Source of the DNA: Gammaproteobacteria bacterium
GTDB taxonomy: Bacteria > Pseudomonadota > Gammaproteobacteria > Eutrophobiales > Eutrophobiaceae
Direction of reading: 5' to 3'
Assembly: GCA_965243105.1 (NCBI GenBank)
Contig: CBDEUC010000003.1
Coordinates: 769,217 to 833,216 of the forward strand
Length of the DNA stretch: 64,000 nt
Position 1 is the stretch's first letter, and each line of letters starts with the position of its first letter. A program made the translations under genes and the position numbers. This document shows, piece by piece, positions 28,830 to 60,727 of the stretch. The notes beneath the pieces were generated by a model. That model saw only the letters and a program-made list of their open reading frames with translations. It did no database searches and had not been told where the DNA came from.

Positions 28830-30089
28830 CTACCCGGTACTGTCGAGATACCTGTTATAGGGTGCGAAAAAATTCAGCGATACAATACATAGCAGCAACA
28901 GGCCCGCGGAAAGAACGAGAATGTTGTCGTAATTCCCGTAAGTATCAAACGCAGCGCCAAAGACAAAGGGTCCTACACCTGTCCCCATCATGTAGGCGCT
29001 GAATACACAGCCAAAAATAGTGCCAAAGTGAGCCATGCCAAAGTAACGGCTTACCAGGTAGGCAACAAGATCTCCCTCGGCACCAATGCCAAAACCCACC
29101 AGCATGGCCCCGGCAAAGTACAGTGCTACGTGGTTTCCCAGTAACAGGAAGAGCACACCGAGCAATGACAGTCCAAACAGGAACATGGCGAGGCGTGGTG
29201 CAAAGAAATGATCCAGCAGAAATCCCACCAGCAGTCGCGCGACGGCCATGCTGATCCCCACCGTGGATGCAATAAAGGCAGCAAGGGTCGCATCAATACC
29301 CCTGTCCCCCATCATGGGCACAAGCTGCGAGAACGTGCCATAAAGTGCAAATGCCAGCGTGGGTGCAAGGATCACAAGAAGAACAAACGCCGGTGTTTTT
29401 ACGGCCTGCCTGAAATTCAGGTTGGATTGCAGCCCGTCCTTCTCGGCTTCATCATCCTGCGTCGCTGCCTTGCCATCAACTTCGAGGCCAATATCTGCAG
29501 GCTCATCGACGACCAACAGGAATATGCAAGGCAATACCACCAGCAGCATGATCCCTGCCAATAGATAGTAACCCGCATGCCAGCCACCGTGATCCAGCAC
29601 CTGGTTTGTCAGCAGGGGCACTAGCGCAAAGCCGGTTCCCATCCCGGAAGCATTGATACCTATGAACAGTCCGCGACGTCGGTCAAACCAGCTTGCGACA
29701 ACCCTGGCATAGGCTACGGTATTGGTGGGGCCGCCAATAAGGGAACCCAGGAATATCATCAGGTAGAAAGTTGGCAGGCTGTTTACATAAAACGGTGCAG
29801 GAGCAACAACTAGAATGGACAGCGCAACGGAGACAAGCAGCACCTTACGTGAACCATAGCGATCAAGTAGTGGACCACTGGCAAGTATGCCGAGAATAAT
29901 ACCCACCGTGAGTACGCTTATGGCAAAAAATATTTCTCCACGACTCCAGCCAAATTCTGCGGCGAGAGGACTGGCCAGTACACCGAGACTGGAAAATAAC
30001 ATTCCCCCGGTACTTCCAACCATGCCGATAAAACAGCCCAGCACAACGGTAGAGCCAAAAAAGAGGGGGAATTTTTTGATGTTCTTCAT
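28830..30089 (-). CDS. Major facilitator superfamily transporter
   Basis: MFS motif A 'GPLLDRYGSR', 'WFDRRRGL', 'SRYFG..HFG'. True start ATG 30089 (MKNIKK), 7 nt after the TauD stop. Confidence 0.88.
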   Translation of the reverse strand: MKNIKKFPLFFGSTVVLGCFIGMVGSTGGMLFSSLGVLASPLAAEFGWSRGEIFFAISVLTVGIILGILASGPLLDRYGSRKVLLVSVALSILVVAPAPFYVNSLPTFYLMIFLGSLIGGPTNTVAYARVVASWFDRRRGLFIGINASGMGTGFALVPLLTNQVLDHGGWHAGYYLLAGIMLLVVLPCIFLLVVDEPADIGLEVDGKAATQDDEAEKDGLQSNLNFRQAVKTPAFVLLVILAPTLAFALYGTFSQLVPMMGDRGIDATLAAFIASTVGISMAVARLLVGFLLDHFFAPRLAMFLFGLSLLGVLFLLLGNHVALYFAGAMLVGFGIGAEGDLVAYLVSRYFGMAHFGTIFGCVFSAYMMGTGVGPFVFGAAFDTYGNYDNILVLSAGLLLLCIVSLNFFAPYNRYLDSTG

Positions 30090-30096
30090 GATGACA

Positions 30097-30906
30097 TCAA
30101 GCGGATGGCCAGCCACGCACCGAGACCCTGTGCATGATTCTCCTGTCGGCGTCAGTTTTTGAGCGCTGTAATACTTCCGCCGCATGGAGTAGTTGCGAGT
30201 TGTCCCAGATAACAAGATCGTGAAGATGATACTGGTGTCGATAAACGAAATCGTCGCCTGTCGCATACTCGCTGACATCGTGGTAAAGACGCCTGAACTC
30301 TTCTTCACTTTGACCTAGAATGCCGATACCCGTGCCGCAGGCACCGTAAAGCGCCGGCCTGCCCGTGACGGGATGCCGTCTTACCAGCGGATACTCCAGT
30401 ACCGGCATTGAGCCATCGGTGCGTCCCTCGTAACAGTGCTGAATCACGAGTTCGCGATATAACTCCTGGGTTTCAGCACTCAATCCATCATAGGCCTGTG
30501 CCTGGTTGGCAAACAGGGTTCGTCCACCGGATGCAGGCACGGCAACAGCATTGAGCATGGTAAAACTGGCCGGCTCGTCCGTATGAATAAGATCCGTATG
30601 CCAGTGGGCACCACCATTTAGCTGGCGGTCATCCCTGTTGTCGGCATTGGACAACGACATGACTTCTGATATGCCATCAAGGTGGAGTGACTCTTCGACG
30701 TGGGGTACAGGGGTACCAAGACGTTGTGCAAAATCGGCCAACTGCGTCGGCGACATTACCTGCTCGCTGATGCAGATAATCGCATGCTGATAAAGTAAGT
30801 GAGTAAGTTGCTGAACTGTATCCTCGTCCACCCCGCCCGCCAGGTCGATGCCACTGATTCGAACACCGGTGTGTTCACTGAGTGCCTCTGTTACGAGCCG
30901 GGACAT
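30097..30906 (-). CDS. TauD/TfdA-family Fe(II)/2-oxoglutarate dioxygenase
   Basis: 'TGVRISGIDL', HxD 'WHTD', 'GRTLFAN', 'PLVRRHPVTGRPALY', 'IWDNSQLLHAA', 'RIMHR'; start ATG 30906. Confidence 0.9.
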   Translation of the reverse strand: MSRLVTEALSEHTGVRISGIDLAGGVDEDTVQQLTHLLYQHAIICISEQVMSPTQLADFAQRLGTPVPHVEESLHLDGISEVMSLSNADNRDDRQLNGGAHWHTDLIHTDEPASFTMLNAVAVPASGGRTLFANQAQAYDGLSAETQELYRELVIQHCYEGRTDGSMPVLEYPLVRRHPVTGRPALYGACGTGIGILGQSEEEFRRLYHDVSEYATGDDFVYRHQYHLHDLVIWDNSQLLHAAEVLQRSKTDADRRIMHRVSVRGWPSA

Positions 30907-30916
30907 GATTGCCTTG

Positions 30917-31549
30917 TTAGCCAGGCATGGGAATGTCTGCCGGATTGGGTACAACAAAACCTTTTTGTACGGCCGGACGTTCGGCGATCTCCCTATACCA
31001 GCGCAGTGCGTTTGGATAGTTATTGAAATCAACTCCCTGCCACTCATAGCGTGATATCCAGGGCCAGGTCGCGATATCGGCAATACTGTATTCATCGCCA
31101 GCGAGGTAGGGTGAATCTGCAAGTCGCTTATCAAGCACGGAATACAGGCGTGCCGCTTCCTTGCTATAACGCTCCTTTGCGTATTCAGATTTATCAGGAT
31201 TAAAGTGAACAAAGTGATGTGCCTGGCCCAGCATAGGACCTGCTCCGCCCATTTGCCACATGAGCCATTCAAGCGTGCTGGCACGCCCGGCGATATCCTT
31301 CGCAATTAGGCAGTCATGCTTTTCGGCCAGGTAAAGAAGTATCGCCCCTGATTCCATCATGCTGATCCCCGCCTCGCGATCGACTATGGCTGGGATCTTG
31401 TTGTTAGGACTAATTTCCAGGAAATCTTCGGCAAACTGCTCATCTTTCAAAATATTAATGGGATGAACATCGTACTCGGCACCGATTTCCTCGAGCATGA
31501 TGGAGACCTTGCGACCGTTTGGCGTAGACCATGTGTATAGATCGTACAT
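30917..31549 (-). CDS. yfcG: Glutathione S-transferase, Nu class (YfcG-like disulfide reductase/glutathione lyase)
   Basis: 'LYTWSTPNGRKVSIMLEE', 'ISPNNKIPAIVD', 'ESGAILLYLA', 'WQMGGAGPMLGQAHHF', 'YSIADIATWPW'. Confidence 0.88.
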   Translation of the reverse strand: MYDLYTWSTPNGRKVSIMLEEIGAEYDVHPINILKDEQFAEDFLEISPNNKIPAIVDREAGISMMESGAILLYLAEKHDCLIAKDIAGRASTLEWLMWQMGGAGPMLGQAHHFVHFNPDKSEYAKERYSKEAARLYSVLDKRLADSPYLAGDEYSIADIATWPWISRYEWQGVDFNNYPNALRWYREIAERPAVQKGFVVPNPADIPMPG

Positions 31550-31668
31550 TGTTATTCCTTTGCTTACTTATAAAAAACTTTTGCCATTCTGGTGAAAAGC
31601 AGAATCCGATTAATTGAATTGTTCACTGGATGCTGGTTTACACCAGCATGACATTCTTCTGTTTCCCT

Positions 31669-32949
31669 CTACCGCCCCTTCTTACGTAGAGTCTGAACGG
31701 TGAAATCCGTCTCCTTCAATTTCCGCTCCGGCAATCTTGCCTTGAATTGCAATGTCGTACAATGCATAGCCTGGATATCAATCATCGATACCACATCGAT
31801 AATGGGCGTCCCGGAACCATGGTTGGCCGGGTGATGGCTGTCAGGATGGGCATAACCCGCCAGTGCAACTTTCCACAAGTTCCCGGCACGGTCAAAGATG
31901 TTACCGTAGGCGGGTTGCATGGTTTGAGCATCAACATAGAACAGCCTTTTTGATAGTGGATGACGCTCATCGTAGGGCGCAGCCTCGAGTACATAAGCCT
32001 TTCTCAGTTGCCAGGTGATATCTGGAAAACAATCGGATTTTCCGGTAAAGCCGATAAACCGGAAGCCATCCTGCTGGTTGTTTACATCAACCAGTGGCAT
32101 CTTGCTGTGATCAAAAAAAGGTAGAAGTACATGGCGTGTTTCAAGGTAGGTCCACTTTTGATCCATGATACGACCGTTATAACCAAGAAAGTCTTCAATC
32201 ATGATGTCGCTTCCCAGGAAGGCATCGGTGGTTTGCCCCGAAGCAAGGCGTCGCACCCTTCGTTGAGTTGCCAGATAAAGCCATGCCTGCTCCTGCTTGG
32301 TGTCATCTTCCATGCGCTGGATTAAAAGCTGCGTACCCCGCAGGTCCGGTGGTGCCAGTACCTTGAGATACAATGTGTTATATATCTCCGATGGGTTTCT
32401 CTTCAATGCCGGCAGGGGTTCTTCCACGTGGCGGTGCATAAAGCGAAGAGAGCTCGCATAGAATGACAGGGTGCGCTCGAGTTTTTCCTTGCGCATATCA
32501 CGATAATTCCAGAAAAAGTCTGTTACCTCGCCACTATCGTAGGCATAGGTATAACGCAGGTTCCAGGCCAGCTTGTCCCCTGCCCTTGGATCGTTAATAT
32601 CCGGCTCCTCGGGGAATGGTCTGCCCGCAACATAATCATTGATAATGCCGGGCTTGTCACCAAGGGTGGTTTTTCCCAGGTGCTCCCTCGTGGCATCGAT
32701 ATATTCCTGGGCGGGTTTAAATGAAAGCTTCTCACCAATTTTAACGGTGTAGAAACCATCGGCGATCAGTTCACCCAGCTTTGGCGCCAGGTATTGCTGG
32801 TAGTCGGCAACATTTGTCGCGTCGATAACCAGGCCAGCCTGCTCACCAGCAGTCGAACTCTCGTCAATGGAGAAGGCATCATCAACGACGTCGGCTGTTG
32901 CAGCGAGGCTGGCGAAAACAAGAAAAAAAAGAACCGCGGTGGTATGCAT
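31669..32949 (-). CDS. DUF1329-family periplasmic protein (second paralogue)
   Basis: Signal peptide; 'AGRPFP..P...DP.AGDKLAWN', 'AWLY....RRVRRLASGQTTDAFLGSDIMIEDF.GYNG', 'HPLSKR..YVD', 'FT...LRK.GR'. Confidence 0.85.
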   Translation of the reverse strand: MHTTAVLFFLVFASLAATADVVDDAFSIDESSTAGEQAGLVIDATNVADYQQYLAPKLGELIADGFYTVKIGEKLSFKPAQEYIDATREHLGKTTLGDKPGIINDYVAGRPFPEEPDINDPRAGDKLAWNLRYTYAYDSGEVTDFFWNYRDMRKEKLERTLSFYASSLRFMHRHVEEPLPALKRNPSEIYNTLYLKVLAPPDLRGTQLLIQRMEDDTKQEQAWLYLATQRRVRRLASGQTTDAFLGSDIMIEDFLGYNGRIMDQKWTYLETRHVLLPFFDHSKMPLVDVNNQQDGFRFIGFTGKSDCFPDITWQLRKAYVLEAAPYDERHPLSKRLFYVDAQTMQPAYGNIFDRAGNLWKVALAGYAHPDSHHPANHGSGTPIIDVVSMIDIQAMHCTTLQFKARLPERKLKETDFTVQTLRKKGR

Positions 32950-32966
32950 GACGACTTCGGCGTTGA

Positions 32967-35198
32967 TTACATTGATGCGCGGTATTTTTCCGGCTTCATG
33001 GCTTCCTTGTATCGCACCCGGCCTTCTTTTCGGTCCGGTGTGACCGGCGATTCAGAAACGGGTGGCGATGCAATATCTGCGGGATAGCAAGCCATGGATT
33101 GTTTTTCGGCAGTGATATTTCGATGAAACGTCAGCTGCCGTTCGTTCGACTTGCTGGCCATAACGACTTCACCCTGTTCGTTGGTATCCATATCCCACCA
33201 CCACTTCTTTACCGGGTTAATCGTGCCATTACCTACCTTGTCATCCAGTTTTGCAATCCACTCCCGGGTAAACGGTAAATGCATTGCCGCCTTGAGAAAA
33301 GGCCACTCCTTCAATACCCCCTCGATATTCCATGGACAGGTCTTCATACACCGACCGCACATGGAGCCCGCGCTATTTGTGATGCGATACTTTGCGCATT
33401 TTTCCACGTCCGGCTTCCAGATCTCGTAACCGTTAAACATGATCTTGTCACCAAAGGGGATCGCCGTGCAGGGGCATTCACGCGCACACTTGGTACATTT
33501 CTCACAGAAATCCTGCAGGCCGAAATCAATGGGTTTGTCTGGAACAAGTGGCATATCCGTGGTGATGACACCGGATTTGAACCTTGGCCCCACAAAGGGA
33601 TTCAACACCAGCTCACCAATACGACTGAGTTCACCCAGGCCTGACTCAAGTATTGCAGGAATATGCAGCACATCCTGGTCCATTACACTGTGGCCACGAG
33701 CTGAATATCCAAGGTTCCTGACATGAGCTCCGACGATGCCGCCGATTAACTGTGCTCGCATGTAGGCACGCATACTTTGAGCTCCGCTGATCCAGTCATC
33801 TCCACTGGCACCCTCCATGGTCTCATGTCCCTGGTCAATCAGCACCGCGATACCATACTTGTGATAGGGTTTAATCTCTGAACCATCAGTGTCATGGGAG
33901 TACCACGCGTATTCCGGTAATTCACAGATACCCACCATGTCCGCACCAAGATAATAGAGTGCGGCCTTTATCGCATCACTATTGGCCTGGGCATCTTCAG
34001 TCCCGGGCGTAATTTCATCCGCCTCCTTACCATACTGTAACGGCACCATACCACCCAGTGGTGGTACCAGCGCATGTCCAAAAGGGGACTTGGTAATCAT
34101 GCGAAAATTATTTAACTCACCCTGGGGCTTGGGCCCAAGATCACCAAGCGCTGCTCGAATAAACATGTCATGACGCTTGGGTATCCGGGGGACATTAGGG
34201 CGGTCTATTAATGTAGTCGGTTCATTTACACGCTTGACGGTCTCCATGGGATAAGGCCCAAGATGAAAAGGCCTGTTATTAAAAAGACGTCCTTTAAATC
34301 CCGGTCGCGATCCGCCCACACCCAGCCACCATGCCGGGCCATGGGACTTAAATTTATTCAAACCCTCACGTTTTGCCAGTGGTTTATCTACCTGTAACTC
34401 CATGCTGGTTGATATGACTGCCACGCTATAGGCATCGCCCAGGTAGGGATTACTAATTCTCGTTGAACCATTGCTTCCTGCAATTTCACCAAGACCTGAC
34501 GCAAGTACCAGGTGATCAAGACTGAGGTCAGACGCGGTATGAGTATGTAGACTCGCCTCAAAACCAAGAAAGCGAATGTAATTGCTCAGTACCGCCGCCA
34601 CTTCCGCGGCTCTGACAGCTGCGCGTTGTTCCTGAGTACCCTGCAACCACTTTGCCCCCGGCTCATCCTGTTTTATATCCCGGGTATGTTCAACAAGTAC
34701 AACAATCGCAAAAGACTGCTCTTCCGGTTTAAAACTATCCTCCGCCGTTCTTGCCCAGGTTTCCCGACCTTCTTTCACGCTACTTTGTGCCATCGCATTA
34801 TCAGCAGACCCTGCGGCATATTCTCTTTCTTCAGCCTGTAGCAATGATTCATTAACGAGTGGGTTTTTAAGAACTGCAACAGGTTCAATACGGCAAACTC
34901 CAACCATACTGGCATCAAGGTAATAGGCCGCCGCTTTGAGGTGATTAGATCGTTCCTCTGTAGAATCAGGTACCGGTGCTTTCCTGGGTGCAGCCTCTCC
35001 CAAACGCACCCGATCAAAAAAATTGATGTAGTCACGAAAGGCATTCGCCATGGACAGGGGCTGACCCGGAATCTCAACTTGCATGGCTTGCATACTTTCG
35101 ACGGCATCGAGAGCTGGTATCTCATCGCACCTGGCAAGTCGTTCCAGTGGATAAGGTCCAAGATGAACTGGTCGATTCTTGTTAGAAAAAATTCTCAT
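32967..35198 (-). CDS. rdhA: Catabolic cobalamin-dependent reductive dehalogenase (NpRdhA/BhbA-type), no Tat signal, no fused reductase
   Basis: Duplicated architecture: 'RPVHLGPYPLERLAR...LKAAAYYLDASMVGVC' (vestigial domain) and 'RPFHLGPYPMETVKRV...IKAALYYLGADMVGIC' (B12 domain). 'DQGHETMEGASGDDWISGAQSMRAYMR', 'GLGELSRIG..VLNPFVGPRFKS...TTDMPL.PDKPIDFG'; two Fe-S motifs 'FCEKCTKCARECP' and 'C..YR......CGRCMKTCPWN'. ATG 35198 has a GAGGTG RBS. Confidence 0.93.
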   Translation of the reverse strand: MRIFSNKNRPVHLGPYPLERLARCDEIPALDAVESMQAMQVEIPGQPLSMANAFRDYINFFDRVRLGEAAPRKAPVPDSTEERSNHLKAAAYYLDASMVGVCRIEPVAVLKNPLVNESLLQAEEREYAAGSADNAMAQSSVKEGRETWARTAEDSFKPEEQSFAIVVLVEHTRDIKQDEPGAKWLQGTQEQRAAVRAAEVAAVLSNYIRFLGFEASLHTHTASDLSLDHLVLASGLGEIAGSNGSTRISNPYLGDAYSVAVISTSMELQVDKPLAKREGLNKFKSHGPAWWLGVGGSRPGFKGRLFNNRPFHLGPYPMETVKRVNEPTTLIDRPNVPRIPKRHDMFIRAALGDLGPKPQGELNNFRMITKSPFGHALVPPLGGMVPLQYGKEADEITPGTEDAQANSDAIKAALYYLGADMVGICELPEYAWYSHDTDGSEIKPYHKYGIAVLIDQGHETMEGASGDDWISGAQSMRAYMRAQLIGGIVGAHVRNLGYSARGHSVMDQDVLHIPAILESGLGELSRIGELVLNPFVGPRFKSGVITTDMPLVPDKPIDFGLQDFCEKCTKCARECPCTAIPFGDKIMFNGYEIWKPDVEKCAKYRITNSAGSMCGRCMKTCPWNIEGVLKEWPFLKAAMHLPFTREWIAKLDDKVGNGTINPVKKWWWDMDTNEQGEVVMASKSNERQLTFHRNITAEKQSMACYPADIASPPVSESPVTPDRKEGRVRYKEAMKPEKYRASM

Positions 35199-35221
35199 GT
35201 TATTCACCTCAAGTTACATGC

Positions 35222-35815
35222 TTACGCCTTTACCATGCGTAACTCGACAAGGTAGTCCTCGACAAAATCAATGCGATCATTTCCCCAGAAGATTTGATCG
35301 TTGACGATAAAAGAAGGCACACCAATCACTCCCAGCTCCTGCGCCTCGCTCCAGTTGTCTTCCAGTTGCTTCGCATTGGCCGGGTCATCGATAAAAGATT
35401 CAAAGTCATTTGCATCAAGCCCAATCGCTTCAGCCACTGGGATAAGAATATCTTTCTGGCCAATGTCATTGCTACCGGCCCATTCACAACGCATCACTTC
35501 AACAATGTACTCAAGCAGGCAGCCTTCTCTCTCTGCCATTAATGAGCCGATGCCGGCCATGGTTGGATCGGTGGTAGGAGGCGGCGGGTTGCAGGGAATG
35601 CCCATGCGCTTTGCCCAGCGTGCCACGTCCTGTCGAGCCAGCGGCATTTTTACCTTGGCTCGATCCGGTGGTGAACGCCCATCCCAACCACCCAGTGGAC
35701 GCCAGACCAGGTTGACGTTGTAGTCTTCCAGCAGTGTAAACATGGTCTTGCTGGCGAGATAGCAATAGGGGCTTCTGAAATTGAAGAATATTTTTAGATC
35801 GACGGAATCAGTCAT
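35222..35815 (-). CDS. 2-hydroxychromene-2-carboxylate isomerase-like protein (NahD/kappa-class GST, DsbA fold)
   Basis: 'FFNFRSPYCYL', 'QDVARWAKRMG', 'GVIGVPSFIVNDQIFWGNDRI'; 197 aa. Confidence 0.85.
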   Translation of the reverse strand: MTDSVDLKIFFNFRSPYCYLASKTMFTLLEDYNVNLVWRPLGGWDGRSPPDRAKVKMPLARQDVARWAKRMGIPCNPPPPTTDPTMAGIGSLMAEREGCLLEYIVEVMRCEWAGSNDIGQKDILIPVAEAIGLDANDFESFIDDPANAKQLEDNWSEAQELGVIGVPSFIVNDQIFWGNDRIDFVEDYLVELRMVKA

Positions 35816-35843
35816 TCAATTCACCTGTATACGATAATTTCAG

Positions 35844-35870: not shown

Positions 35871-35887
35871 CGTCAATGCCGTAAAAA

Positions 35888-37207: not shown

Positions 37208-37230
37208 ACTTCGCCCTCCAAAAATTATTC

Positions 37231-53448: not shown

Positions 53449-53455
53449 CTAGACA

Positions 53456-53818
53456 CTAATTTCCCACTCCGTGCATGCCTTCAAGGCCGGGAGTTTTAAC
53501 TCGAATAAAAGAACAATGGGCGATACCGTTTTCTTCCAGGGTCTTGTCGAAGTCCGGTGTCCAGGGCTCGTTTTCCATTTGCCATTCAGCATTTTCAAAG
53601 TCGGCTTTCTCGGCATCTGGATGGTGCCGGTAATCCGGCCTCAGCATCTGCTCAACAAAATCCCGGAAAGTAATGTTTCCCGGTGTTGGATAGGCATTGG
53701 GCGCGCAGTACATCAGGTGATGGTCCCAGACCACATAAAGGTTCATGATGCCGTTATAGTTTTCCACCAGGTTAGCAGGAGGAAAGTCGTAGGATTCACC
53801 AACAAATTTCACAGCCAT
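53456..53818 (-). CDS. dmpO: Phenol hydroxylase gamma subunit (P4)
   Basis: MAVK...'YDFPPAN..ENY', 'YVVWDHHLMYCAP', 'YRHHPD', 'WTPDFDKTLEENGIAH', 'TPGLEG'; true start ATG 53818 with GAGGA RBS. Confidence 0.92.
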   Translation of the reverse strand: MAVKFVGESYDFPPANLVENYNGIMNLYVVWDHHLMYCAPNAYPTPGNITFRDFVEQMLRPDYRHHPDAEKADFENAEWQMENEPWTPDFDKTLEENGIAHCSFIRVKTPGLEGMHGVGN

Positions 53819-53840
53819 ATTAATATCCTCGTATTCTTGT

Positions 53841-55367
53841 TTAAGCAGCTTCGTCGCTGGGCTTGGCGGCCTTTGCCTGCCATTCTTCCCACATCTGGTG
53901 ATCTTCAGAACCGTAGTATTCACCGGTGTCTTCATCACGTATATGGAGCCAATTCTTATAGTCCTCCAGGGTTGCTCCTCCGCAGTTACCCTGGTAGATC
54001 TGCTGAGGTGGAATATAAGCCTGGCAATATTTCTCCGGCTCCCGGTCAAAGATGTCCTTGCAGCCATGGGAACACATTTGTTGCTTGGTACCCTTGAACT
54101 CGGATACCAGGCACTCGTTCTTGTAGGGATCGTCGGGCTGGGTATGGAAGATTGGAATCTGGCAAACATTACACACTGCGGGCAGACGCTTCTGGAAGAA
54201 ACGTTCACCGTCTTTATGCATTTCAGCCCAGTGTCTGTAGCGAGGCGCATAGAGATTATCAAACAGCTCACCGTACTCCGCTGACAACCAATCCATTTCT
54301 TCGTCCGTAGGCAGCCAGGTATAGAGCGCGGTCGCATGAGAGAACTGGTAAATGGTCGACCAGAATTCATGGGTGATACGGTACTTTTCCTTTGTCGCTG
54401 TCTCGTGATGCTTTGGCAGCCTGATGCCGTAGCGTGCAAGATCATTGAAAAGAGCGATACCGTTTTCTTCCCAGTAAATTTCCCAGGCCTGGCGCCAGGA
54501 CATGACTTTCTTTGGCAACATATAGTCCATCATGGTGCCCACAAGACCCAGCAGGCGATAGCCACGCCAGAACCACTTGTCCAGCCATTCCTGCACGATA
54601 GGTACGTTGTCCTCGTGCTGCTCCAGCATGAACTTGATGATTTCAAGTCCAAGGGTCATGTGCCGGGATTCATCGGACTGGGCTGAAAAACCAAAAGTGG
54701 TTGTAGCCATGTCACCGTTGTAGGCAGCACCCGAGACAAAGGGCATGAACAGCAGGTTGGTCAGTACGTATTCAAAAGAAAACGAGATGGCCGTGATAAA
54801 TTCAAAGGGGCCAGCAGTCATGGCATCTTCAAAGTAGGACTTTGGAATCGACAGGTACCAGGCTCGGTCTCGAATACGGGCATGCTGGTTAAAGCCATTG
54901 AAGTACTTGTTGTAATGGCTGAATGCATGCACCTGGGTCTGGTGATGACGCATCTCGTCAATTGCCTGGAACTGGGTTGCAACCCTTGCCCCGGCACCAC
55001 GGAAATTTCGGCCCAGCATGTTAAAACCACGAAATGCCGCATACTCCAGTGGCGTCACACCCTGCATCCATATCTTTACCGCGTTCATGTAGCGGGCGTC
55101 GGAGATACTCTGCTGGCTGTTGTTCTGAGCAACGCTATCGAGAATCGCGTATAGCTTTCGTTCTTTTTCAGCCTGGTACTTCCAGTAGGCATCCATGGTC
55201 AGGCGAAACGGATCCTGCCACTTGTCCCAGTCCTTGACGATGATTCCCTCGTACTTGTCGTAGGGAAATACATCATCCATGTCCTGGTAAGTGGTTTCCC
55301 AGTCAAGACCACGGGTCATGAGCTGGTATTTCTGGTTCAGGTTAAGGCGCTTTGCTTTTCCCGACAT
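53841..55367 (-). CDS. dmpN: Phenol hydroxylase alpha (diiron) subunit (P3)
   Basis: 'DWDKWQDPFRLTMDAYWKYQAEKE', diiron ligands 'PLEY', 'IDEMRH', 'SFEYVLTN', 'QSDESRH'; YHS-like 'CNVCQ...CSHGC'; start ATG 55367. Confidence 0.97.
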   Translation of the reverse strand: MSGKAKRLNLNQKYQLMTRGLDWETTYQDMDDVFPYDKYEGIIVKDWDKWQDPFRLTMDAYWKYQAEKERKLYAILDSVAQNNSQQSISDARYMNAVKIWMQGVTPLEYAAFRGFNMLGRNFRGAGARVATQFQAIDEMRHHQTQVHAFSHYNKYFNGFNQHARIRDRAWYLSIPKSYFEDAMTAGPFEFITAISFSFEYVLTNLLFMPFVSGAAYNGDMATTTFGFSAQSDESRHMTLGLEIIKFMLEQHEDNVPIVQEWLDKWFWRGYRLLGLVGTMMDYMLPKKVMSWRQAWEIYWEENGIALFNDLARYGIRLPKHHETATKEKYRITHEFWSTIYQFSHATALYTWLPTDEEMDWLSAEYGELFDNLYAPRYRHWAEMHKDGERFFQKRLPAVCNVCQIPIFHTQPDDPYKNECLVSEFKGTKQQMCSHGCKDIFDREPEKYCQAYIPPQQIYQGNCGGATLEDYKNWLHIRDEDTGEYYGSEDHQMWEEWQAKAAKPSDEAA

Positions 55368-55412
55368 AAGTCTATTCCTCAATATTGTTAAATCGATTTG
55401 TTATTTCAATCC

Positions 55413-55557
55413 AAAAACTTAAATATAAATGAGAGATTTTTTCTTCAGGCAAGGCACGAGTCTTTCGACAAGCGGAGTGTACACGGCAGTACATGAGCAT
55501 TGGAGAAAGGCGAGAACGCAGCATGAAGGAAAAAGAGTCATTTAGATTAAGTTTTTT
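55413..55557. repeat. About 145-bp palindromic (MITE-like) element filling the dmpM-dmpN spacer
   Basis: Imperfect terminal IRs aaaaacttaa..taaatga..ttttttcttca / tgaaggaaaaa..tcattta..ttaagttttt around gtctttc/gaaaggc and a central tgtac-acggca-gtaca hairpin; single copy in the window. Confidence 0.55.
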
Positions 55558-55828
55558 AGAAATTCCAGTGTAAGACAAACTCATCCTCGTCCTCGTCAAT
55601 ATTTCCCGACAGGGAAATCAGGCTGAGATGAATATCCTGCAGGTTAAATTCCTGCCCCAGCTTCTCCTCTACGGTTTCACGCCTGATAACAAGACGCTTG
55701 GGACAGTCGATTTTCACCATGCCCGGTGTTTCATTGACGACGGCATTTTCATTGTCCTCGGCAATAGCCTCGATGATTGGCTGGGCCTCGGGGTTATTCT
55801 GAAGTGCGATAAATACATTCTCAGCCAT
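55556..55828 (-). CDS. dmpM: Phenol hydroxylase activator/regulatory subunit (P2, MmoB/DmpM family)
   Basis: 'NVFIALQ', 'IIEAIAEDN', 'PGMVKID', 'LISLSGNIDEDEDEF.L.W'; 90 aa. Confidence 0.95.
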   Translation of the reverse strand: MAENVFIALQNNPEAQPIIEAIAEDNENAVVNETPGMVKIDCPKRLVIRRETVEEKLGQEFNLQDIHLSLISLSGNIDEDEDEFVLHWNF

Positions 55829-55837
55829 GCTGTTCTC

Positions 55838-56836
55838 CTAGCCCTGTAAACCCAGTTTTTTTGAACGGGCATTGAGTTCATCTTCAATTTCCTGCATGAC
55901 CCCGTCAGACCTTTCTTTAAATACTTCATTCGCGATGAGCTTTGCCGCGACCACGATTTCCGGCTGCCACTTCTCGATCCACGACTGGATTAACTGCCGG
56001 TTTTCGTCAGATTCACTGGCCGCCGTCTTGATGGTAGCGTCGGTCCAGCGCTTTGATTCCGCATACCAGTCAACGAAAAACTCGGTAAGCATGGCAAATG
56101 CTGCGCCACCATTTGCGACGATGTGCCCTTCCACGTGCTGGAACAACAGGGGCTGAAAAATGCCGTCGAGCAGGTAGTTCTGGATGAGGTGAACTTCGAA
56201 CCAGTCCTTTTCCACAAAGCAGTCTTCGATGACCTTGCGTAAACCCTGCCACATGGGGTCATTCATCCAGCTTTCTTTTGCGGTATCAAGAATGGCCGGG
56301 TCATTCTCACTGAGGATAAGACCAATGCGGGTGAGGTATTGTGCGTTGCCCAGCCTGTCCATACCCTGCATGGTGGCAGCACTGACTATGGGTGTTTGAA
56401 ACCCGTATGAAGAAACAAAAAAATTGTTGGTGTTAGCACCCCACTCGGCATGGCGGAAGGGAACGATGACCTTTTCGATTGTCTCCTTGAGTTCATTATC
56501 CAGGCCGGTAAGCAAACCGCGCTTTTCTACCACGCTGAAATTCTTCTCCTGGGACTCCTGCTGCTTGGAACGCTGGATAACATAGGTGCCGTAGTAGTAT
56601 TGTCTCGGATCAACGAGGTCCTCAAAGTCCTCCATCTTGATCGCAGAGCGGCGTTCATCGAACAGTTGATGCTGAGGATCCCAGGTTGGCCTGTAGTGAA
56701 ATACATCCTCGGCCTGGTGGCCGAACATTACCTCCTGGTAGCGTGTTGGCTTTTTACCTTCACCCAGCTTTCTCTCGATGTGGTCAAAGGTTGTTCTCTT
56801 GGCTTCCAGGTTGGCTGTTTTAAGATCGATAGACAT
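55838..56836 (-). CDS. dmpL: Phenol hydroxylase beta subunit (P1)
   Basis: 'TRYQE', 'FHYRPTWDP', 'DPRQYYYGTY', 'PFRHAEWGAN', 'DRLGNAQYLTRIG', 'WQGLR', 'DWFE'. Confidence 0.95.
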   Translation of the reverse strand: MSIDLKTANLEAKRTTFDHIERKLGEGKKPTRYQEVMFGHQAEDVFHYRPTWDPQHQLFDERRSAIKMEDFEDLVDPRQYYYGTYVIQRSKQQESQEKNFSVVEKRGLLTGLDNELKETIEKVIVPFRHAEWGANTNNFFVSSYGFQTPIVSAATMQGMDRLGNAQYLTRIGLILSENDPAILDTAKESWMNDPMWQGLRKVIEDCFVEKDWFEVHLIQNYLLDGIFQPLLFQHVEGHIVANGGAAFAMLTEFFVDWYAESKRWTDATIKTAASESDENRQLIQSWIEKWQPEIVVAAKLIANEVFKERSDGVMQEIEDELNARSKKLGLQG

Positions 56837-56853
56837 GGTTTGTATCTCTCGGT

Positions 56854-57111
56854 TTAGGAATTGTCATGTACGAGGGAGATATCTGTCACCTCACCGCCGT
56901 ACCACTTGCTTTCTGCTTCGCTTACCTGCTTCACCTGTTCCTCGGTGAGGAAGGTCACGTCGTTGTAACGACAAAAATCTTCAAAGGCCTGTTCCGGCAG
57001 GATCATTTCCAGGAAAAGAGTCGGGTCGTTGATGGAAAAGTTGAACTCGACGAAACCTTCGCGTTCGCGATCGGTGACGTGCACATATTTCTTCAGCGGC
57101 GTGTCGCTCAC
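56854..57111 (-). CDS. dmpK: Phenol hydroxylase assembly protein (P0)
   Basis: 'KYVHVT....GFVEFNFSINDPTLFLEMILPEQAFEDFC..N.V'; GTG start, first gene of the operon. Confidence 0.92.
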   Translation of the reverse strand: MSDTPLKKYVHVTDREREGFVEFNFSINDPTLFLEMILPEQAFEDFCRYNDVTFLTEEQVKQVSEAESKWYGGEVTDISLVHDNS

Positions 57112-57164
57112 TTTTTCCCCCGGTTGAATTGTTGTCGTATTGCCTTATGGCTGCACTAATCTAT

Positions 57165-57180
57165 CGCACGCTCCGTGCCA
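57165..57180 (-). promoter_or_regulatory. Sigma54 (-24/-12) promoter of the phenol hydroxylase operon
   Basis: Minus strand TGGCAC-GGAGC-GTGCG (consensus TGGCAC-N5-TTGC), about 54 nt upstream of dmpK. Confidence 0.85.
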
Positions 57181-57244
57181 TAATCGTCAAGTTACTGAAT
57201 TGCAAAGAATTTGGATATAAGCCAGGGTCAGCAATCATGAATAT

Positions 57245-57293
57245 TTAACCATATGATGAAATATTCCTGATTAAATAGTTACCAAATGATCAA
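57245..57293. promoter_or_regulatory. Two XylR/DmpR-type upstream activating sequences
   Basis: 16-bp imperfect palindromes, minus strand TTCATCATATGGTTAA (57245-57260) and TTGATCATTTGGTAAC (57278-57293), upstream of the sigma54 site; they resemble the TTGATCA..TGATCAA consensus. Confidence 0.72.
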
Positions 57294-58030
57294 TTACTTC
57301 TTGAAAGTTCTATCAACGCCTCGCCAAGCTCCTTTGGGCAGCAGTAAAAGGGGGAATGATCGGCGGCCAGGGTGACACTGCCATCGACCCTGCCATTTGA
57401 CATCTGTCGCTGCTGCATCGACGGAGTAATAGCCGCATCCTCGCTACACTCGATGTAGGTCCGCCGCACCCTTCCATAATTTTCTTCAGTGAGTTCAAGC
57501 GGTGTCGCGTTGGGGGCTATGGCCTGGGGCTTGAGGCGAGCGATAGCATTAGCCACATCCTCGTCACTACATAAACCATAAAAACATTCGCGCAGCTTGT
57601 CTTCGGGTACCGAGATGATGCCTTCATCCTCGTGCACTTCCAGGTAACGCGCGGTGAGCGAACCTTCGTCGGCCTGCGCATACTGCAGCAGGTTCTCGCC
57701 ATTGCGGGGTGAAAAGGCGGTGAGATATACCAGCGTATTGATCCTGTCTGAAACCTTTTCAGCAACCTGGGTCACAACCATGCCGCCCATGCTGTGCCCC
57801 ACCAGTATCACGGGCTCGCCGATGTTGTTGATGACACCAACAACTTTATCCACGTAGCCATCAAGGGAGACTTCATGAACCGGGGTGGGGTCCTCGCCCA
57901 GGCCCGGCAGGTCAAGTGTATGCGCTTCGTGTCCGTGGCTTTCAAGTACCGGCACCACTTTCTCCCAGCACCAGGCCCCGTGCCAGGCGCCGTGTACCAG
58001 GACAAACTGTAACTTGCTTGTATCGTTCAT
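57290..58030 (-). CDS. Alpha/beta hydrolase, methylesterase (SABP2/MES-like) family
   Basis: 'FVLVHGAWHGAWCW', 'DLPG', nucleophile 'GHSMGG', 'YIECSEDAAI', 'DHSPF'; begins 9 nt after the dmpR stop. Confidence 0.88.
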   Translation of the reverse strand: MNDTSKLQFVLVHGAWHGAWCWEKVVPVLESHGHEAHTLDLPGLGEDPTPVHEVSLDGYVDKVVGVINNIGEPVILVGHSMGGMVVTQVAEKVSDRINTLVYLTAFSPRNGENLLQYAQADEGSLTARYLEVHEDEGIISVPEDKLRECFYGLCSDEDVANAIARLKPQAIAPNATPLELTEENYGRVRRTYIECSEDAAITPSMQQRQMSNGRVDGSVTLAADHSPFYCCPKELGEALIELSRSN

Positions 58031-58039
58031 TTGTTTTCC

Positions 58040-59710
58040 TCACTCGTTGAAAGTACTGGCGTGTTTTTTCAGTCGATACGCCAGCTGGGGTCGTGTCATG
58101 CCAAGCATGCGCGCGGCAGAACTGATATTACCCTTACTTCTTGCCACCGCTTCGTCCAGCAGGCGAGCCTCCAGTTTATCCAGGGGAATCTTGTGCCTGA
58201 GCGCGTGGTCAATCAGGCTGGCCAGTCGTGAATCCCGGCGCCCGCCATCCTCCTGGTTATGATCGCTGGGAATCGATAGCAGGCTTCCCGGTTCTATCAG
58301 GCTGGCGCTGTTGGTGAGAATAACACCTCGCTCAATAATATTTTCAAGCTCCCTGATATTCCCAGGCCACTGGTAATCCAGCAGTGCATTCATGGCTTCT
58401 TCGGAACAGCCGGCAATCTTCTTGTTGTGCTGCAGGCTATATCTCTCGATAAACCTGTCCACCAGCAGCGGAATGTCGTCGAGGCGTTCCCTGAGAGGCG
58501 GAATAATCACCGGGTAGGTGTTTAGGCGATAGAAAAGATCGCTGCGAAATTTCCCTTCAGACACGGCCTGCCACAGGTCAATGTTGGTGGCAACAATTAG
58601 CCTCACATCCACTTTTCGCGTGGACGTATCGCCGATGCGTTCCAGTTCGCCTTCCTGGATCACACGTAGTAGCTTTACCTGTGCCCCGGCGGACAGCTCT
58701 CCCACTTCATCGAGAAAAAGTGTACCTCCATGGGCTCTTTCAAAACGTCCCGGTCGTGATCGACTGGCACCGGTAAAGGCTCCTTTTTCAACACCAAACA
58801 GTTCGGATTCAATCAGGTCTTCCGGAATGGCGGCGCAGTTCAGTGTCACGAATGGGCCCTTGCTGCGATTACTGTTGCTGTGAATTCGACGACTGAATAG
58901 CTCCTTCCCCACGCCGGTCTCGCCCAGCAACATCACCGTAACCTGGCTCGGCGCGGCCTTGTCCACCAGGTCCTTGACGTTTTCAATACTGCGCGATGAA
59001 CCGACGATATCCAGTTCAGTATCATCGTCCCGCTTGAGCGAGGCTCGAAGGTTATCTACCTGTTCCTGTAATTCCAGCAGGCGGTCAGCGAGACTGTCGG
59101 GTTTGAGGAATGCCAGGTCTGCGCTTTCATCTTCGCTCAGCTCGCTTTCCATCTTGCCAACAATCCGGCAGCTGGAATCGCCCTTCGCCACGCAGTCCAC
59201 TTCACGAAACAGCACCGTGGAACCGAAAAGCGCGGTGGTATAGCCGGTGGCATAGCCCACCTGCATCCAGCACACCGCTTCGCTATCAACACCGAATGCT
59301 TCGCGGTGAACTTCCGCCTCGTAGGAATTTTCCCAGATAAACTCGCCGCTACAGACATGTTCAGCGACGTCCATTTCAAAACGCACCGGGGTCACCTTGA
59401 CGATGCCCTCGATGTTATGAAGCTGTGGGCCCAGTTCAAACAGCTCGCGATCGCTTTCCTCGGGATACATGGAACGGATGAAGCGTGCGTCGCGCACGCC
59501 GGAGGCGTAGCCCATCCGGGTGAGCACGCCACGGGCCCGCTGGCGTCCCATGGATTCGATCAGCTCCTGGCGCAGTGAACTCATGGCAGCGGTATGCACC
59601 ATGATCATTCTCTGGCTATCGAGCCAGATTTGCCCACTCTCAGGGGAGAACTTGAGCCTCGACTGGATTTCCTGGCGGTGGCCCGTGTCGTTGTGGATTA
59701 CATTTGCCAT
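58040..59710 (-). CDS. dmpR: Sigma54-dependent phenol-responsive activator (XylR/DmpR family)
   Basis: XylR_N/V4R sensor 'GQIWL...RM', 'GPQLHNIEG', 'CWMQVGYATGY', 'EVDC...C'; AAA+ 'GETGVGKE', 'ESELFGVEKGAFTGA', 'LFLDEVGE', 'WPGNIRELEN'; HTH 'AARMLGMTRPQLAYRL'. Confidence 0.95.
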   Translation of the reverse strand: MANVIHNDTGHRQEIQSRLKFSPESGQIWLDSQRMIMVHTAAMSSLRQELIESMGRQRARGVLTRMGYASGVRDARFIRSMYPEESDRELFELGPQLHNIEGIVKVTPVRFEMDVAEHVCSGEFIWENSYEAEVHREAFGVDSEAVCWMQVGYATGYTTALFGSTVLFREVDCVAKGDSSCRIVGKMESELSEDESADLAFLKPDSLADRLLELQEQVDNLRASLKRDDDTELDIVGSSRSIENVKDLVDKAAPSQVTVMLLGETGVGKELFSRRIHSNSNRSKGPFVTLNCAAIPEDLIESELFGVEKGAFTGASRSRPGRFERAHGGTLFLDEVGELSAGAQVKLLRVIQEGELERIGDTSTRKVDVRLIVATNIDLWQAVSEGKFRSDLFYRLNTYPVIIPPLRERLDDIPLLVDRFIERYSLQHNKKIAGCSEEAMNALLDYQWPGNIRELENIIERGVILTNSASLIEPGSLLSIPSDHNQEDGGRRDSRLASLIDHALRHKIPLDKLEARLLDEAVARSKGNISSAARMLGMTRPQLAYRLKKHASTFNE

Positions 59711-59770
59711 GGCTTGGGATATTTCCGATGCAGCAATAATGAACAGGATTATGCCTGTTTCTCGGCAAAT

Positions 59771-59786
59771 TTCACCATATGATCAA
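59771..59786. promoter_or_regulatory. Third XylR/DmpR-type site in the dmpR/dmpD divergent promoter
   Basis: TTCACCATATGATCAA, close match to the two sites upstream of dmpK. Confidence 0.6.
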
Positions 59787-59817
59787 ATTTTTACTTATAT
59801 GGCTCGACATCGCAAAG

Positions 59818-59833
59818 AAAATATCGATATTTT
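59818..59833. promoter_or_regulatory. Palindromic operator, copy 3 (putative GntR/FCD site)
   Basis: AAAATATCGATATTTT between the divergent dmpR and dmpD genes. Confidence 0.8.
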
Positions 59834-59896
59834 TCCATCAATGGCTATTATTCCGCTGCTTGAGTAATAACTTCCACAAAGCAGGGGACATTAGTA

Positions 59897-60727
59897 ATGA
59901 GTACATCACCGGAGATTGGCCTGTCCATCAAGGCGGCCGGCATTGACACCAATTACCACGAGCAGGGGGACGGCCAGCCGCTGGTGTTGTTCCATGGCTC
60001 GGGCCCGGGTGTATCGGCTTTTGCCAACTGGCGTCTAGTGAAACCTGCGCTGTCCGAATCGTTCAGGGTCATCGCCCCGGACATGGTGGGCTTTGGTTAC
60101 ACGGAAAAGCCCGAGGGGCAGAACTACAACATGAAAGCCTGGCTCGATCATGCCCTGGGTATTTTCGACGCTTTGAATATCGAAAAGGCCCACGTCATTG
60201 GTAACTCCTTTGGTGGTGCGCTTTCCCTGGCCCTTGCCATCCACGCACCTGAGCGCGTGCAGCGACTGGTGCTAATGGGAAGTGTTGGTCTTGATTTTGA
60301 ATTGACCGAGGGCCTGGACAAGACATGGGGCTATACGCCATCCATTGAGAACATGAAGGAGCTGCTGGACATCTTTGCCTACGACCGCTCCCTCGTCACC
60401 GATGAACTGGCGGAGTTGCGCTACCAGGCCAGCATGCGTGAAGGTGTGCAGGAAGCTTACGCTTCCATGTTTCCGGCACCACGCCAGGATGGCATTCGCG
60501 GTATGGCGAGTTCAGAAGAAGACATCGCACGTATCGAACATGAAACCCTGATTATCCATGGCCTTGAAGATGAGGTGATCCCCGTTTCCTGCTCTGAACG
60601 CCTGTTAAGACTCATACCAAATTCGCAGTTACATGTTTTCAGGAAGTGCGGTCACTGGACGCAAATAGAACACAATGCACGATTCATTCAGCTGGCAGAA
60701 AATTTCCTTAAAGAAGATGACGATTAG
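59897..60727 (+). CDS. dmpD: 2-hydroxymuconic semialdehyde hydrolase (meta-cleavage product hydrolase)
   Basis: 'PEIG.SI.AAGI.TNYH', 'HGSGPGVSAFANWR', 'GNSFGG', 'WGYTPSIENM', 'MFPAPRQ', 'CGHWTQIEH'. Confidence 0.93.
   Translation: MSTSPEIGLSIKAAGIDTNYHEQGDGQPLVLFHGSGPGVSAFANWRLVKPALSESFRVIAPDMVGFGYTEKPEGQNYNMKAWLDHALGIFDALNIEKAHVIGNSFGGALSLALAIHAPERVQRLVLMGSVGLDFELTEGLDKTWGYTPSIENMKELLDIFAYDRSLVTDELAELRYQASMREGVQEAYASMFPAPRQDGIRGMASSEEDIARIEHETLIIHGLEDEVIPVSCSERLLRLIPNSQLHVFRKCGHWTQIEHNARFIQLAENFLKEDDD

Follow-up and report, generated by a model that had tools for sequence, protein, structure and literature searches.

Why does a gene for a reductive dehalogenase (RDH) lie within an island for aerobic phenol degradation, and what could its product do there? 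The question is posed by rdhA in a 64,000-bp stretch of gammaproteobacterial DNA (hereafter the window; contig CBDEUC010000003.1 of assembly GCA_965243105.1, positions 769,217 to 833,216), where a first-pass annotation had placed the gene among phenol hydroxylase and meta-cleavage (dmp) genes. Comparative genomics supports well a coupling of this RdhA to aerobic phenol catabolism, in which the enzyme probably serves as the ortho-dehalogenation step. The reading towards which we lean is that an RdhA of the oxygen-tolerant type removes a halogen ortho to the phenolic hydroxyl and so feeds the island's aerobic aromatic catabolism.

The gene inventory was built from a listing of open reading frames (ORFs) and from searches of the window proteins with Pfam and NCBIfam profiles. 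By this inventory, rdhA is gene 13 of a run of 17 co-directional minus-strand genes (49525 to 28830), which are spaced from −4 (overlap) to 192 bp apart; the first-pass annotation had listed all 17 in this order, and every one was recovered, as were dmpR-KLMNOPQB and dmpD next to the run (50911-60727). The phenol hydroxylase is complete, consisting of six subunits (K, L, M, N, O, and P), and is accompanied by the DmpQ ferredoxin and a catechol 2,3-dioxygenase, DmpB, which scores below the HpaD cut-off and above the catechol 2,3-dioxygenase equivalog cut-off. Genes C, D, E, F, G, and H of the lower meta-pathway are all present in the island; a search of the whole genome, which is 98.6% complete, for dmpI (PF01361, the 4-oxalocrotonate tautomerase family) gave no match.

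RdhA and its neighbourhoods across genomes

The identification of rdhA was borne out by profile and structure searches. The 746-aa protein scored 236.4 bits on the RDH model TIGR02486 (cut-off, 160.35) and matched the solved NpRdhA of Nitratireductor pacificus with an E-value of 5e-182 (PDB 4RAS); the alignment to 4RAS/6ZXU (about 1e-182) falls into two stretches, an N-terminal domain (residues 3-109, i-Evalue 1.8e-17) and a catalytic part (residues 164-744). Identity to NpRdhA is 42% over residues 3-716 and 47% over residues 164-744, and that to BhbA is 43.6%. The N-terminus carries MR(I/L)FS..R..HLGP..LERL, a pattern common across the RdhA family, and two 4Fe-4S motifs, CEKCTKCARECP and CGRCMKTCPWN, align with those of NpRdhA; matches to Fer4_7 and Fer4_16 stay below the Pfam cut-offs. 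PceA matched the catalytic core only (E 1e-23). A C-terminal FMN/NAD(P)H/2Fe-2S reductase domain is absent (the protein ends with NpRdhA and has no Fer2 or NAD_binding match), as is a Tat leader (the N-terminus aligns from residue 3 with the cytoplasmic NpRdhA), and no RdhB-type small membrane anchor occurs among the flanking ORFs, all of which are accounted for. These features place RdhA solidly as a cytoplasmic, unfused catabolic RDH of the NpRdhA/BhbA type, with predicted binding of vitamin B12 and two 4Fe-4S clusters.

To compare the active sites, residue roles in NpRdhA were taken from PMC7565698, and the numbering was verified on the NpRdhA gene from its own genome. RdhA residues S478, M479, Y482, K544, and R608 correspond to NpRdhA S422, M423, Y426, K488, and R552, and these five, together with Q421 (NpRdhA numbering), are kept in 88/88 aligned rows. 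The pocket differs from that of NpRdhA at six positions (F290M, K307L, F310M, P311I with a 2-aa insert, A419G, and N452V), which are invariant in nine of the ten rows of the window clade defined below. K307, at the pocket entrance of NpRdhA, forms a salt bridge to the benzoate of a ligand in a non-productive pose, according to the accessible text of PMC7565698.

For the phylogeny, the window protein, its relatives, 78 of 80 genome loci, three N. pacificus paralogues, and BhbA were combined in a tree of 88 RdhAs; the partial locus L041 and L085, which is one gene with L097, were omitted. Three groups emerged: one around NpRdhA, with 5 unfused rows, to which a second long RdhA of the same genome belongs; a group of 10 unfused rows that includes the window RdhA (SH-aLRT 98); and a group of 73 rows, BhbA among them, that is almost entirely fused (72/73 rows are about 1070 aa). 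Placed in a tree with NpRdhA and BhbA, as the first-pass annotation had suggested, the window RdhA thus falls in a separate clade. A search of 5.8 billion proteins returned more than 100 clusters (at 90% identity) of this clade that are 55-91% identical to RdhA; nearly all are metagenomic, and one bears the name of a cultured organism, a 61%-identical homologue assigned to Pseudomaricurvus alkylphenolicus by its source record. In a quick 128-row FastTree, the window RdhA sits inside a 91-row unfused clade, whose sister group mixes fused and unfused proteins, suggesting that the reductase domain was gained or lost repeatedly. By these sequence comparisons, the window clade is a distinct, large, and so far uncharacterised group of reductase-less, putatively catabolic RdhAs.

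We then asked whether the neighbourhood of rdhA is conserved. Each species contributed one genome to the set of 80 rdhA loci; the window clade accounts for 7 of these and other RdhA clades for 73. Lower-pathway dmp genes and/or the BNR-RND-DUF1302-DUF1329 genes lie within 10 kb at 6/7 window-clade loci, and the same neighbour sets occur at 0/73 of the others. An order-wide sample of 126 genomes, all from one family, holds the window clade in 24; the carriers comprise 20 of the sister genus's 23 species-level genomes, with RdhAs 66-70% identical to the window protein, two of five relatives in the window's genus plus the window genome, and two further genera. Neighbourhoods were compared with the window proteins in 27 genomes, including three outside the 126-genome sample, and rdhA was found within about 15 kb of meta-pathway and/or transport-module genes in 25. 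For the first-pass annotation, a complete lack of linkage between orthologues and dmp clusters elsewhere would have spoken against the coupling; linkage to dmp and/or module genes in 25/27 genomes and in three arrangements clearly shows the contrary.

In arrangement A (22 genomes of two genera), the order is ...dmpCEFGH-BNR-RND-DUF1302-DUF1329-DsbA-RdhA..., with the meta-pathway genes visible in 18 genomes and the contigs too short in the other four. In arrangement B, found in genomes G016 and G064, RdhA lies between or beside dmpK and dmpR; in G016, rdhA and dmpK diverge from a spacer of about 270 bp that holds a sigma-54-type element. Arrangement C, BNR-RND-DUF1302-DUF1329-GST-RdhA, was seen in G063. 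The DsbA-like gene, 14 bp upstream of rdhA in the window, adjoins it in 22/22 type-A genomes and is also present in G003, which lacks rdhA. Downstream, DUF1329_b is kept behind rdhA or HpaB in the sister genus; the YfcG-like glutathione S-transferase (GST), TauD, and MFS genes are not kept beside rdhA in other genera, and G003 has the GST.

Conservation thus holds for part of the coupling that the first-pass annotation had proposed: the lower meta-pathway and the transport module are conserved neighbours, but the phenol hydroxylase is not, being adjacent to rdhA in three of the seven complete-enough genomes checked. An rdhA within about 25 kb of dmpN, as that annotation had envisaged, was found in three genomes: the window's own (18.6 kb), G016 (1.9 kb), and G064 (9.6 kb). 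Of 41 genomes sampled from the family, 5 have dmpN, 11 have DUF1302, and 5 have the clade RdhA; 3 combine dmpN with this RdhA.

A second phenol-hydroxylating system stands beside the same RdhA clade. In 16/22 type-A genomes, rdhA is directly followed by a close homologue of the phenol ortho-hydroxylase HpaB of E. coli (E 1.8e-176), whose top PDB match is 4OO2, titled chlorophenol-4-monooxygenase (E 2e-188); beyond it lie DUF1329 and then hydroxyquinol 1,2-dioxygenase genes, between one and three of them, which are homologous to the one in the window. HpaB homologues are missing from the genome of the window. The presence of two different phenol-hydroxylating systems beside one RdhA clade points to dehalogenation followed by hydroxylation and is, as we read it, the strongest single argument for this order.

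The island also occurs without the dehalogenase. G003, from the window's genus, carries an identical island from dmpR to the YfcG-like GST that lacks rdhA; it has no rdhA remnant, and DUF1329_b follows DsbA after about 78 bp. G024 carries a G016-type island, likewise without rdhA. The island can therefore carry the dehalogenase or lack it, and rdhA entered at different places. Collectively, these patterns suggest that rdhA of this clade was recruited repeatedly into an aromatic-catabolic island of one marine Gammaproteobacteria family.

Proposed pathway and rival explanations

Enzyme family, catalytic residues, gene order, and conserved synteny are observed here; substrate, pathway order, transport role, electron donor, and co-expression we infer. 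In the proposed pathway, hydrophobic halophenols would cross the envelope with the help of the BNR-RND-DUF1302-DUF1329 products, a putative four-gene envelope transport module (all four families adjacent, 35888-42960, minus strand; the sole copy in the genome). RdhA would strip ortho halogens by the NpRdhA mechanism, in which the halogen ligates cobalt, Lys, Arg, and Ser hold the phenolate, and Tyr donates a proton. The phenol or 4-substituted phenol would then be ortho-hydroxylated, by DmpKLMNOP here and by the HpaB-type enzyme in the sister genus, and the ring would be opened by the catechol 2,3-dioxygenase and DmpC/D/E/F/G/H or, for para-substituted products, by the neighbouring hydroxyquinol route. 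Electrons would come from a separate partner, possibly DmpQ, and B12 from import. Ortho-debromination ahead of hydroxylation would prevent suicide 3-halocatechols from forming, and RdhA would, logically, protect DmpB from them. A fuller version, in which the clade RdhA is the entry to a complete aerobic bromophenol growth pathway, with a dedicated outer-membrane/RND module for halophenol uptake and DmpQ as the source of electrons, in a B12-auxotrophic marine organohalide specialist whose carbon metabolism would depend on cobalamin from others, can be offered only tentatively and is doubtful as a whole.

RdhA has no reductase domain, and its electrons must be supplied by a separate partner. The 2Fe-2S proteins nearest to rdhA are DmpQ and DmpP, and DmpQ is, by family, presumably a plant-type ferredoxin. 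That DmpQ donates electrons to RdhA would be a guess by analogy with NpRdhA, which, in the accessible text of PMC7565698 and PMC10463259, accepts spinach (plant-type) ferredoxin in vitro. As to the cofactor, the genome has two cobalamin riboswitches (Table 1); neither CobS nor CobN turned up at this completeness (98.6%), so the cell has to import B12 and is likely a B12 auxotroph.

The first-pass annotation had treated the 17 genes as one co-directional run. The gene order stands, but the run is probably not one simple operon, because a terminator-like hairpin precedes DsbA-rdhA. A stem-loop is present at the same spot in G003, G001, G034, and L016. Judging from these signals, rdhA would be expressed either by partial read-through, and then less strongly than the genes upstream of it, or from a promoter that escaped our scan.

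Several observations weigh against the coupling of RdhA to the island. The hairpin lies between DUF1329_a and DsbA, 33 nt before the DsbA start, and no sigma-70-like promoter was found between hairpin and DsbA by scan or by eye, so that co-transcription of rdhA with the meta-pathway genes would need read-through. In two genomes of the clade, G067 and G029 (the latter 93% complete), rdhA has no dmp neighbours and dmpN was not detectable, and the phenol hydroxylase is 0.15 to more than 2 Mb from rdhA in four sister-genus genomes. Moreover, 20 of the 27 clade genomes are from one genus; the figure of 25/27 therefore overstates independence, and the independent support amounts to about three arrangements in about five genera. 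On the side of electron supply, the genome comparison showed no ferredoxin or reductase gene that stays with rdhA, and when the genome was searched for a free-standing counterpart to the reductase domain in fused RdhAs, no candidate could be named; the best match (C3:316251-317354) is 23-25% identical and far away, and the remaining matches are partial ones to DmpP. DUF1302 and DUF1329 also occur in dehalogenase-free aromatic clusters, as described in the accessible text of PMC7012976 and 10.1101/072470, so nothing about their presence is halogen-specific. Finally, BhbA has Ser at the K307 position though its substrate is carboxylated, which leaves the hydrophobic pocket a weak case for non-carboxylated substrates.

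The rival that survives best concerns the substrate. The first-pass annotation had proposed simple halophenols; the residues that handle the phenolic hydroxyl and the proton are indeed conserved, but because an HpaB homologue follows rdhA in 16/22 type-A genomes, brominated 4-hydroxyphenyl acids (3-bromo- or 3,5-dibromo-4-hydroxyphenylacetate or -benzoate, e.g., from bromotyrosine breakdown) are a live alternative, with HpaB-type hydroxylation, the reaction of the E. coli 4-hydroxyphenylacetate 3-monooxygenase, coming after. Characterised enzymes lean the same way: in the accessible text of PMC10463259, JtRdhA acts on 3-bromo-4-hydroxyphenylacetate at 99% of its best rate and on 2,6-dibromophenol at 7%, and NpRdhA and BhbA prefer 3,5-dibromo-4-hydroxybenzoate (accessible text of PMC7565698 and PMC10463259). 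The window itself fits acids less well, in that an HpaB homologue is missing from its genome, the ring-cleavage genes linked to rdhA belong to the catechol (dmp) type (DmpB under the HpaD cut-off; DmpG/DmpF an HMGL and acetaldehyde-dehydrogenase pair), the linked transporter is of the hydrophobe-type RND/DUF1302/DUF1329 kind, with solute symporters flanking the other long RdhA instead, and the basic pocket-entrance residue of NpRdhA (K307) is Leu. We therefore consider acids an unlikely substrate, yet one to be kept in view.

Less probable still, with a small chance in our estimate, is that the co-location is historical: the dmp/transport island would be a hot spot for accessory genes, and rdhA a separate detoxification or scavenging unit with no metabolic hand-over. 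The hairpin directly upstream of DsbA-rdhA, the presence or absence of rdhA between otherwise identical islands (G000 versus G003), the variable downstream genes (TauD/MFS here, HpaB and an intradiol dioxygenase elsewhere), and the two clade members without any dmp genes speak for this explanation. It accounts poorly for recruitment into the same island at three different positions, for retention of rdhA in 20/23 sister-genus genomes at 66-70% identity, for the fact that both alternative downstream neighbours are phenol-hydroxylating or ring-cleaving enzymes, and for the 0/73 other-clade loci that share these neighbours. It is very improbable that RdhA is not a dehalogenase at all and carries out some other B12-dependent reduction, as does the related epoxyqueuosine reductase QueG: the clade is uncharacterised and six pocket positions differ from NpRdhA, but every halide- and phenolate-handling residue of NpRdhA is kept, identity to it is 42-47% over the whole length, and the RDH cut-off is passed with only 18 bits on the QueG model in a genome that holds a separate QueG-like gene.

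If RdhA and the island are functionally coupled, this would explain how aerobes can use an ordinary extradiol dioxygenase on ortho-halogenated phenols, would add an aerobic reductive branch to the marine bromine cycle, and would give bioremediation a source of debrominases that lack a reductase domain, probably tolerate oxygen, and have a different pocket. B12 cross-feeding would be tied to aromatic carbon turnover. The cultured carrier of the 61%-identical homologue, P. alkylphenolicus, makes the coupling directly testable.

Other genes and signals

Four items in Table 1 were absent from the first-pass gene list: the alpha/beta hydrolase, the GntR regulator with the DUF6265 gene, the hairpin, and a hydroxyquinol-type operon. 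The last starts at 62116 (minus strand) and runs past the window end (64000); on locus L110 (333-6150), it comprises, besides the dioxygenase, genes for a FAD monooxygenase of 391 aa (the 3' part of which lies in the window), a fused CoA-transferase, and a maleylacetate-reductase-like Fe-ADH, with a LysR regulator gene that is divergent. This operon lies about 27 kb from rdhA, and DmpKLMNOP (dmpN) 18.6 kb from it. A GntR gene stands beside the lower operon also in G003, G034, G016, and G024, and homologues (32-37% identity) of the 429-aa conserved hypothetical protein lie next to dmpR in G016 and L018.

Table 1. Coordinates of the features discussed, in window numbering or, with a contig prefix (C1 to C3), in the rest of the genome
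Feature	Position	Strand	Basis or remark
MFS transporter	28830-30089	-	Probable start 30089 (refined)
TauD/TfdA-family dioxygenase	30097-30906	-	Probable start 30906 (refined)
YfcG-like GST	30917-31549	-	Pfam/NCBIfam
DUF1329_b (LolA-like lipoprotein)	31669-32949	-	PF07044, E 1.5e-65; 17 bp downstream of rdhA
RdhA, 746 aa	32967-35207	-	PDB 4RAS, TIGR02486
DsbA/NahD-like (kappa-GST, 2-hydroxychromene-2-carboxylate isomerase-like)	35222-35815	-	PF01323, E 2e-33; PDB 2IMD, HCCA isomerase, E 4e-18
Terminator-like hairpin, 10-bp stem (6 GC) + T-run	35848-35871	-	Top-scoring site in 28500-48400; fold -19.2 kcal/mol
DUF1329_a	35888-37207	-	PF07044
DUF1302	37231-39351	-	PF06980
RND/MMPL, HAE3-like	39544-41922	-	PF03176; TIGR00921 below cut-off
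BNR/Ycf48-like	41926-42960	-	PF14870/BNR
dmpH	42990-43778	-	Pfam
dmpG (HMGL)	43775-44818	-	Pfam
dmpF (acetaldehyde dehydrogenase)	44830-45738	-	Pfam
dmpE	45888-46679	-	Pfam
dmpC	46781-48280	-	Pfam
HbpS/GlcG-like	48309-48728	-	Pfam
GST	48725-49525	-	Best PDB match LigF 4XT0, E 1.4e-26
GntR/FCD regulator, divergent	49665-50375	+	Pfam
DUF6265 protein	50411-50869	+	Pfam
dmpB, catechol 2,3-dioxygenase	50911-51834	-	TIGR03211, 435 bits (cut-off 320)
dmpQ, plant-type ferredoxin	51855-52199	-	Pfam
dmpO	53456-53815	-	Pfam
dmpK	56854-57111	-	Pfam
dmpK,L,M,N,O,P,Q,B cluster	57111 to 50911	-	PF06099, PF02332 (twice), PF02406, PF04663, Fer2+FAD+NAD
Sigma-54-like -24/-12 element, TGGCAC-N5-GTGC	57165-57180	-	54 nt upstream of dmpK; 2-mismatch match
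Alpha/beta hydrolase, between dmpR and dmpK	57290-58030	-	Pfam
dmpR	58040-59710	-	XylR_N, V4R, sigma-54 AAA+, HTH_8
dmpD-like meta-cleavage product hydrolase	59897-60727	+	Pfam/NCBIfam
Conserved hypothetical, 429 aa	60832-62121	+	No Pfam or NCBIfam match; Atlas, 'hypothetical protein' clusters only
Hydroxyquinol 1,2-dioxygenase-like	62116-62985	-	PDB PnpC 3N9T, E 2e-85; 6-chlorohydroxyquinol dioxygenase 8R2X, E 5e-75
Cobalamin riboswitch 1	C2:594220-594437
Cobalamin riboswitch 2	C3:1679638-1679816
Second long RdhA, 733 aa	C3:348164-350365		L111, 13165-15366
Short RDH-like paralogue 1	C2:452621-453574
Short RDH-like paralogue 2	C3:2045457-2046425
Short RDH-like paralogue 3	C3:2747936-2748949
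Short RDH-like paralogue 4	C3:473498-474583
Short RDH-like paralogue 5	C3:2688365-2689384
Short RDH-like paralogue 6	C1:76504-77508
Short RDH-like paralogue 7	C3:335145-336170
Short RDH-like paralogue 8	C3:336174-337190
Short RDH-like paralogue 9	C3:1662936-1663985
Short RDH-like paralogue 10	C1:49364-50341

The sigma-54-like element before dmpK is credible only by its position, because 2-mismatch matches to the pattern in the window number 19 against 13.1 expected, which is near chance; a pattern search found no such element in the 49525-49665 spacer before the lower operon. In G001 (L014, 3025-3296), the DUF1329-DsbA spacer measures 269 bp versus 72 bp in the window; behind the same terminator hairpin, it contains a palindromic REP-like unit of about 40 nt that is repeated in tandem about four times. 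A search of sequencing runs with 32967-37207 listed no RNA data set that carries the stretch; four rows of one sample carry it, and another metagenome row carries a third of its words. The window contains no tRNA genes, and no GC anomaly was found around rdhA.

Two candidate roles for genes of the run were considered. A BphK-like dehalogenase of ring-fission products was dropped for the first GST, whose best solved relative is LigF; no BphK entry is among the 60 best matches listed for it. The TauD/TfdA gene is at most a possible ether-cleaving source of halophenols from phenoxyalkanoates; it is only distant to TauD and TfdA alike and is not kept beside rdhA in other genera. At the far end of the run, two plus-strand genes (26520-28829) converge on it, one for a Rieske oxygenase (PF11723, E 9e-88; 'homotrimeric ring hydroxylase' type) and one for an MFS transporter; the stop codons abut (28829/28830), and there is no adjacent reductase partner. 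Farther away (17589-22176, minus strand) are a TonB-dependent receptor (812 aa) and then a DUF3604 protein (702 aa, E 5e-161), followed by a 345-aa protein with no family match.

The genome (4.05 Mb) holds 12 RDH-family genes in total, apart from the QueG-like gene. The second long unfused RdhA is 44% identical to the window RdhA, carries Arg at the site of K307, has a sodium:solute symporter gene on either side, and is of a type found in more genomes of the family than the window type. The other ten are short paralogues (317-361 aa) that share an N-terminal SGN(E/A/T/K)(I/V)NG(L/V)G motif; the two scanned scored 108-122 bits on TIGR02486, under the cut-off of 160. They keep both 4Fe-4S motifs and the catalytic Tyr, with Arg at the K488 position and Phe/Trp at the R552 position, and we take this Tyr and Arg dyad to resemble that of PceA-type enzymes. 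A likely B12 auxotroph thus carries a dozen putatively B12-dependent RDH-family genes.

Comparison with known systems

Characterised oxygen-tolerant catabolic RdhAs are very few; those met in this comparison are BhbA, NpRdhA, JtRdhA, the Roseobacter debrominase, and the enzyme of Ochrobactrum sp. T, a tetrabromobisphenol A (TBBPA) dehalogenase listed in the accessible text of PMC10463259; among these, the sole worked-out pathway context is the bromoxynil-to-protocatechuate route of BhbA. Like NpRdhA (N. pacificus pht-3B; 4RAS, 6ZXU/6ZXX), the window RdhA has two domains and two 4Fe-4S motifs, lacks a reductase domain and a Tat leader, and carries the identical S/M/Y/K/R set of catalytic and hydroxyl-binding residues; unlike it, the window RdhA belongs to another clade, with six pocket positions changed, K307L among them. 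NpRdhA is reported with a ferredoxin reductase and two ferredoxins (accessible text of PMC10463259), whereas the window RdhA is accompanied by meta-cleavage and transport genes. The resemblance to BhbA (Comamonas sp. 7D-2, plasmid pBHB) and the self-sufficient JtRdhA lies in the same catalytic residues and in a putatively catabolic, not respiratory, role in a carbon-source pathway of an aerobic host. However, the neighbours of BhbA are genes for a tripartite tricarboxylate transporter binding protein and a transhydrogenase, and BhbA feeds a protocatechuate-type route (accessible text of PMC10463259), whereas the window RdhA is unfused and lies in a catechol meta-cleavage island.

Ros_A3X954, a debrominase of a heterotrophic marine Roseobacter, converts 2,6-dibromophenol to 2-bromophenol (accessible text of PMC13101508); the same reaction type is proposed for the window RdhA, and the accessible text of that report mentions no coupling to a phenol pathway. 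In Zoogloea oleivorans BucT, DUF1302 and DUF1329 genes lie inside a dmpKLMNOP/catechol 2,3-dioxygenase cluster which, unlike the window island, lists no reductive dehalogenase in the accessible text of PMC7012976, and BNR-RND-DUF1302-DUF1329 is described as a cofit four-gene cluster in that of 10.1101/072470. The enzyme type and the occurrence of DUF1302/DUF1329 genes in phenol-hydroxylase clusters are therefore already known. As the first-pass annotation had supposed, no described operon with the rdhA-dmp coupling came to light: a literature search, with subscription journals and supplements outside it, found no account of this RdhA clade, of its insertion among meta-cleavage and transport genes, or of its pairing with HpaB and hydroxyquinol genes.

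For the phenol pathway, the reference is the dmp operon of Pseudomonas sp. CF600 (dmpR, dmpKLMNOPQBCDEFGHI). The window island shares its sigma-54 activator, six-subunit phenol hydroxylase, ferredoxin, catechol 2,3-dioxygenase, and both lower branches. It differs in being split into an upper unit (K to B) and a lower unit headed by the GST and GlcG-like genes under a divergent GntR regulator, in having dmpD apart on the other strand and no dmpI found, and in having the transport module, rdhA, and more genes appended. For the order of steps, the closest parallel is Ochrobactrum sp. TB01, which, in work by Yamada and colleagues from 2008, reportedly debrominates 2,4,6-tribromophenol sequentially to phenol by aerobic reductive debromination, and to which no gene cluster is said to have been assigned; neither the enzyme's identity nor a link to dmp genes is known to have been established there. 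As reported for that strain, the pathway proposed for the window would debrominate first and then degrade the phenol aerobically.

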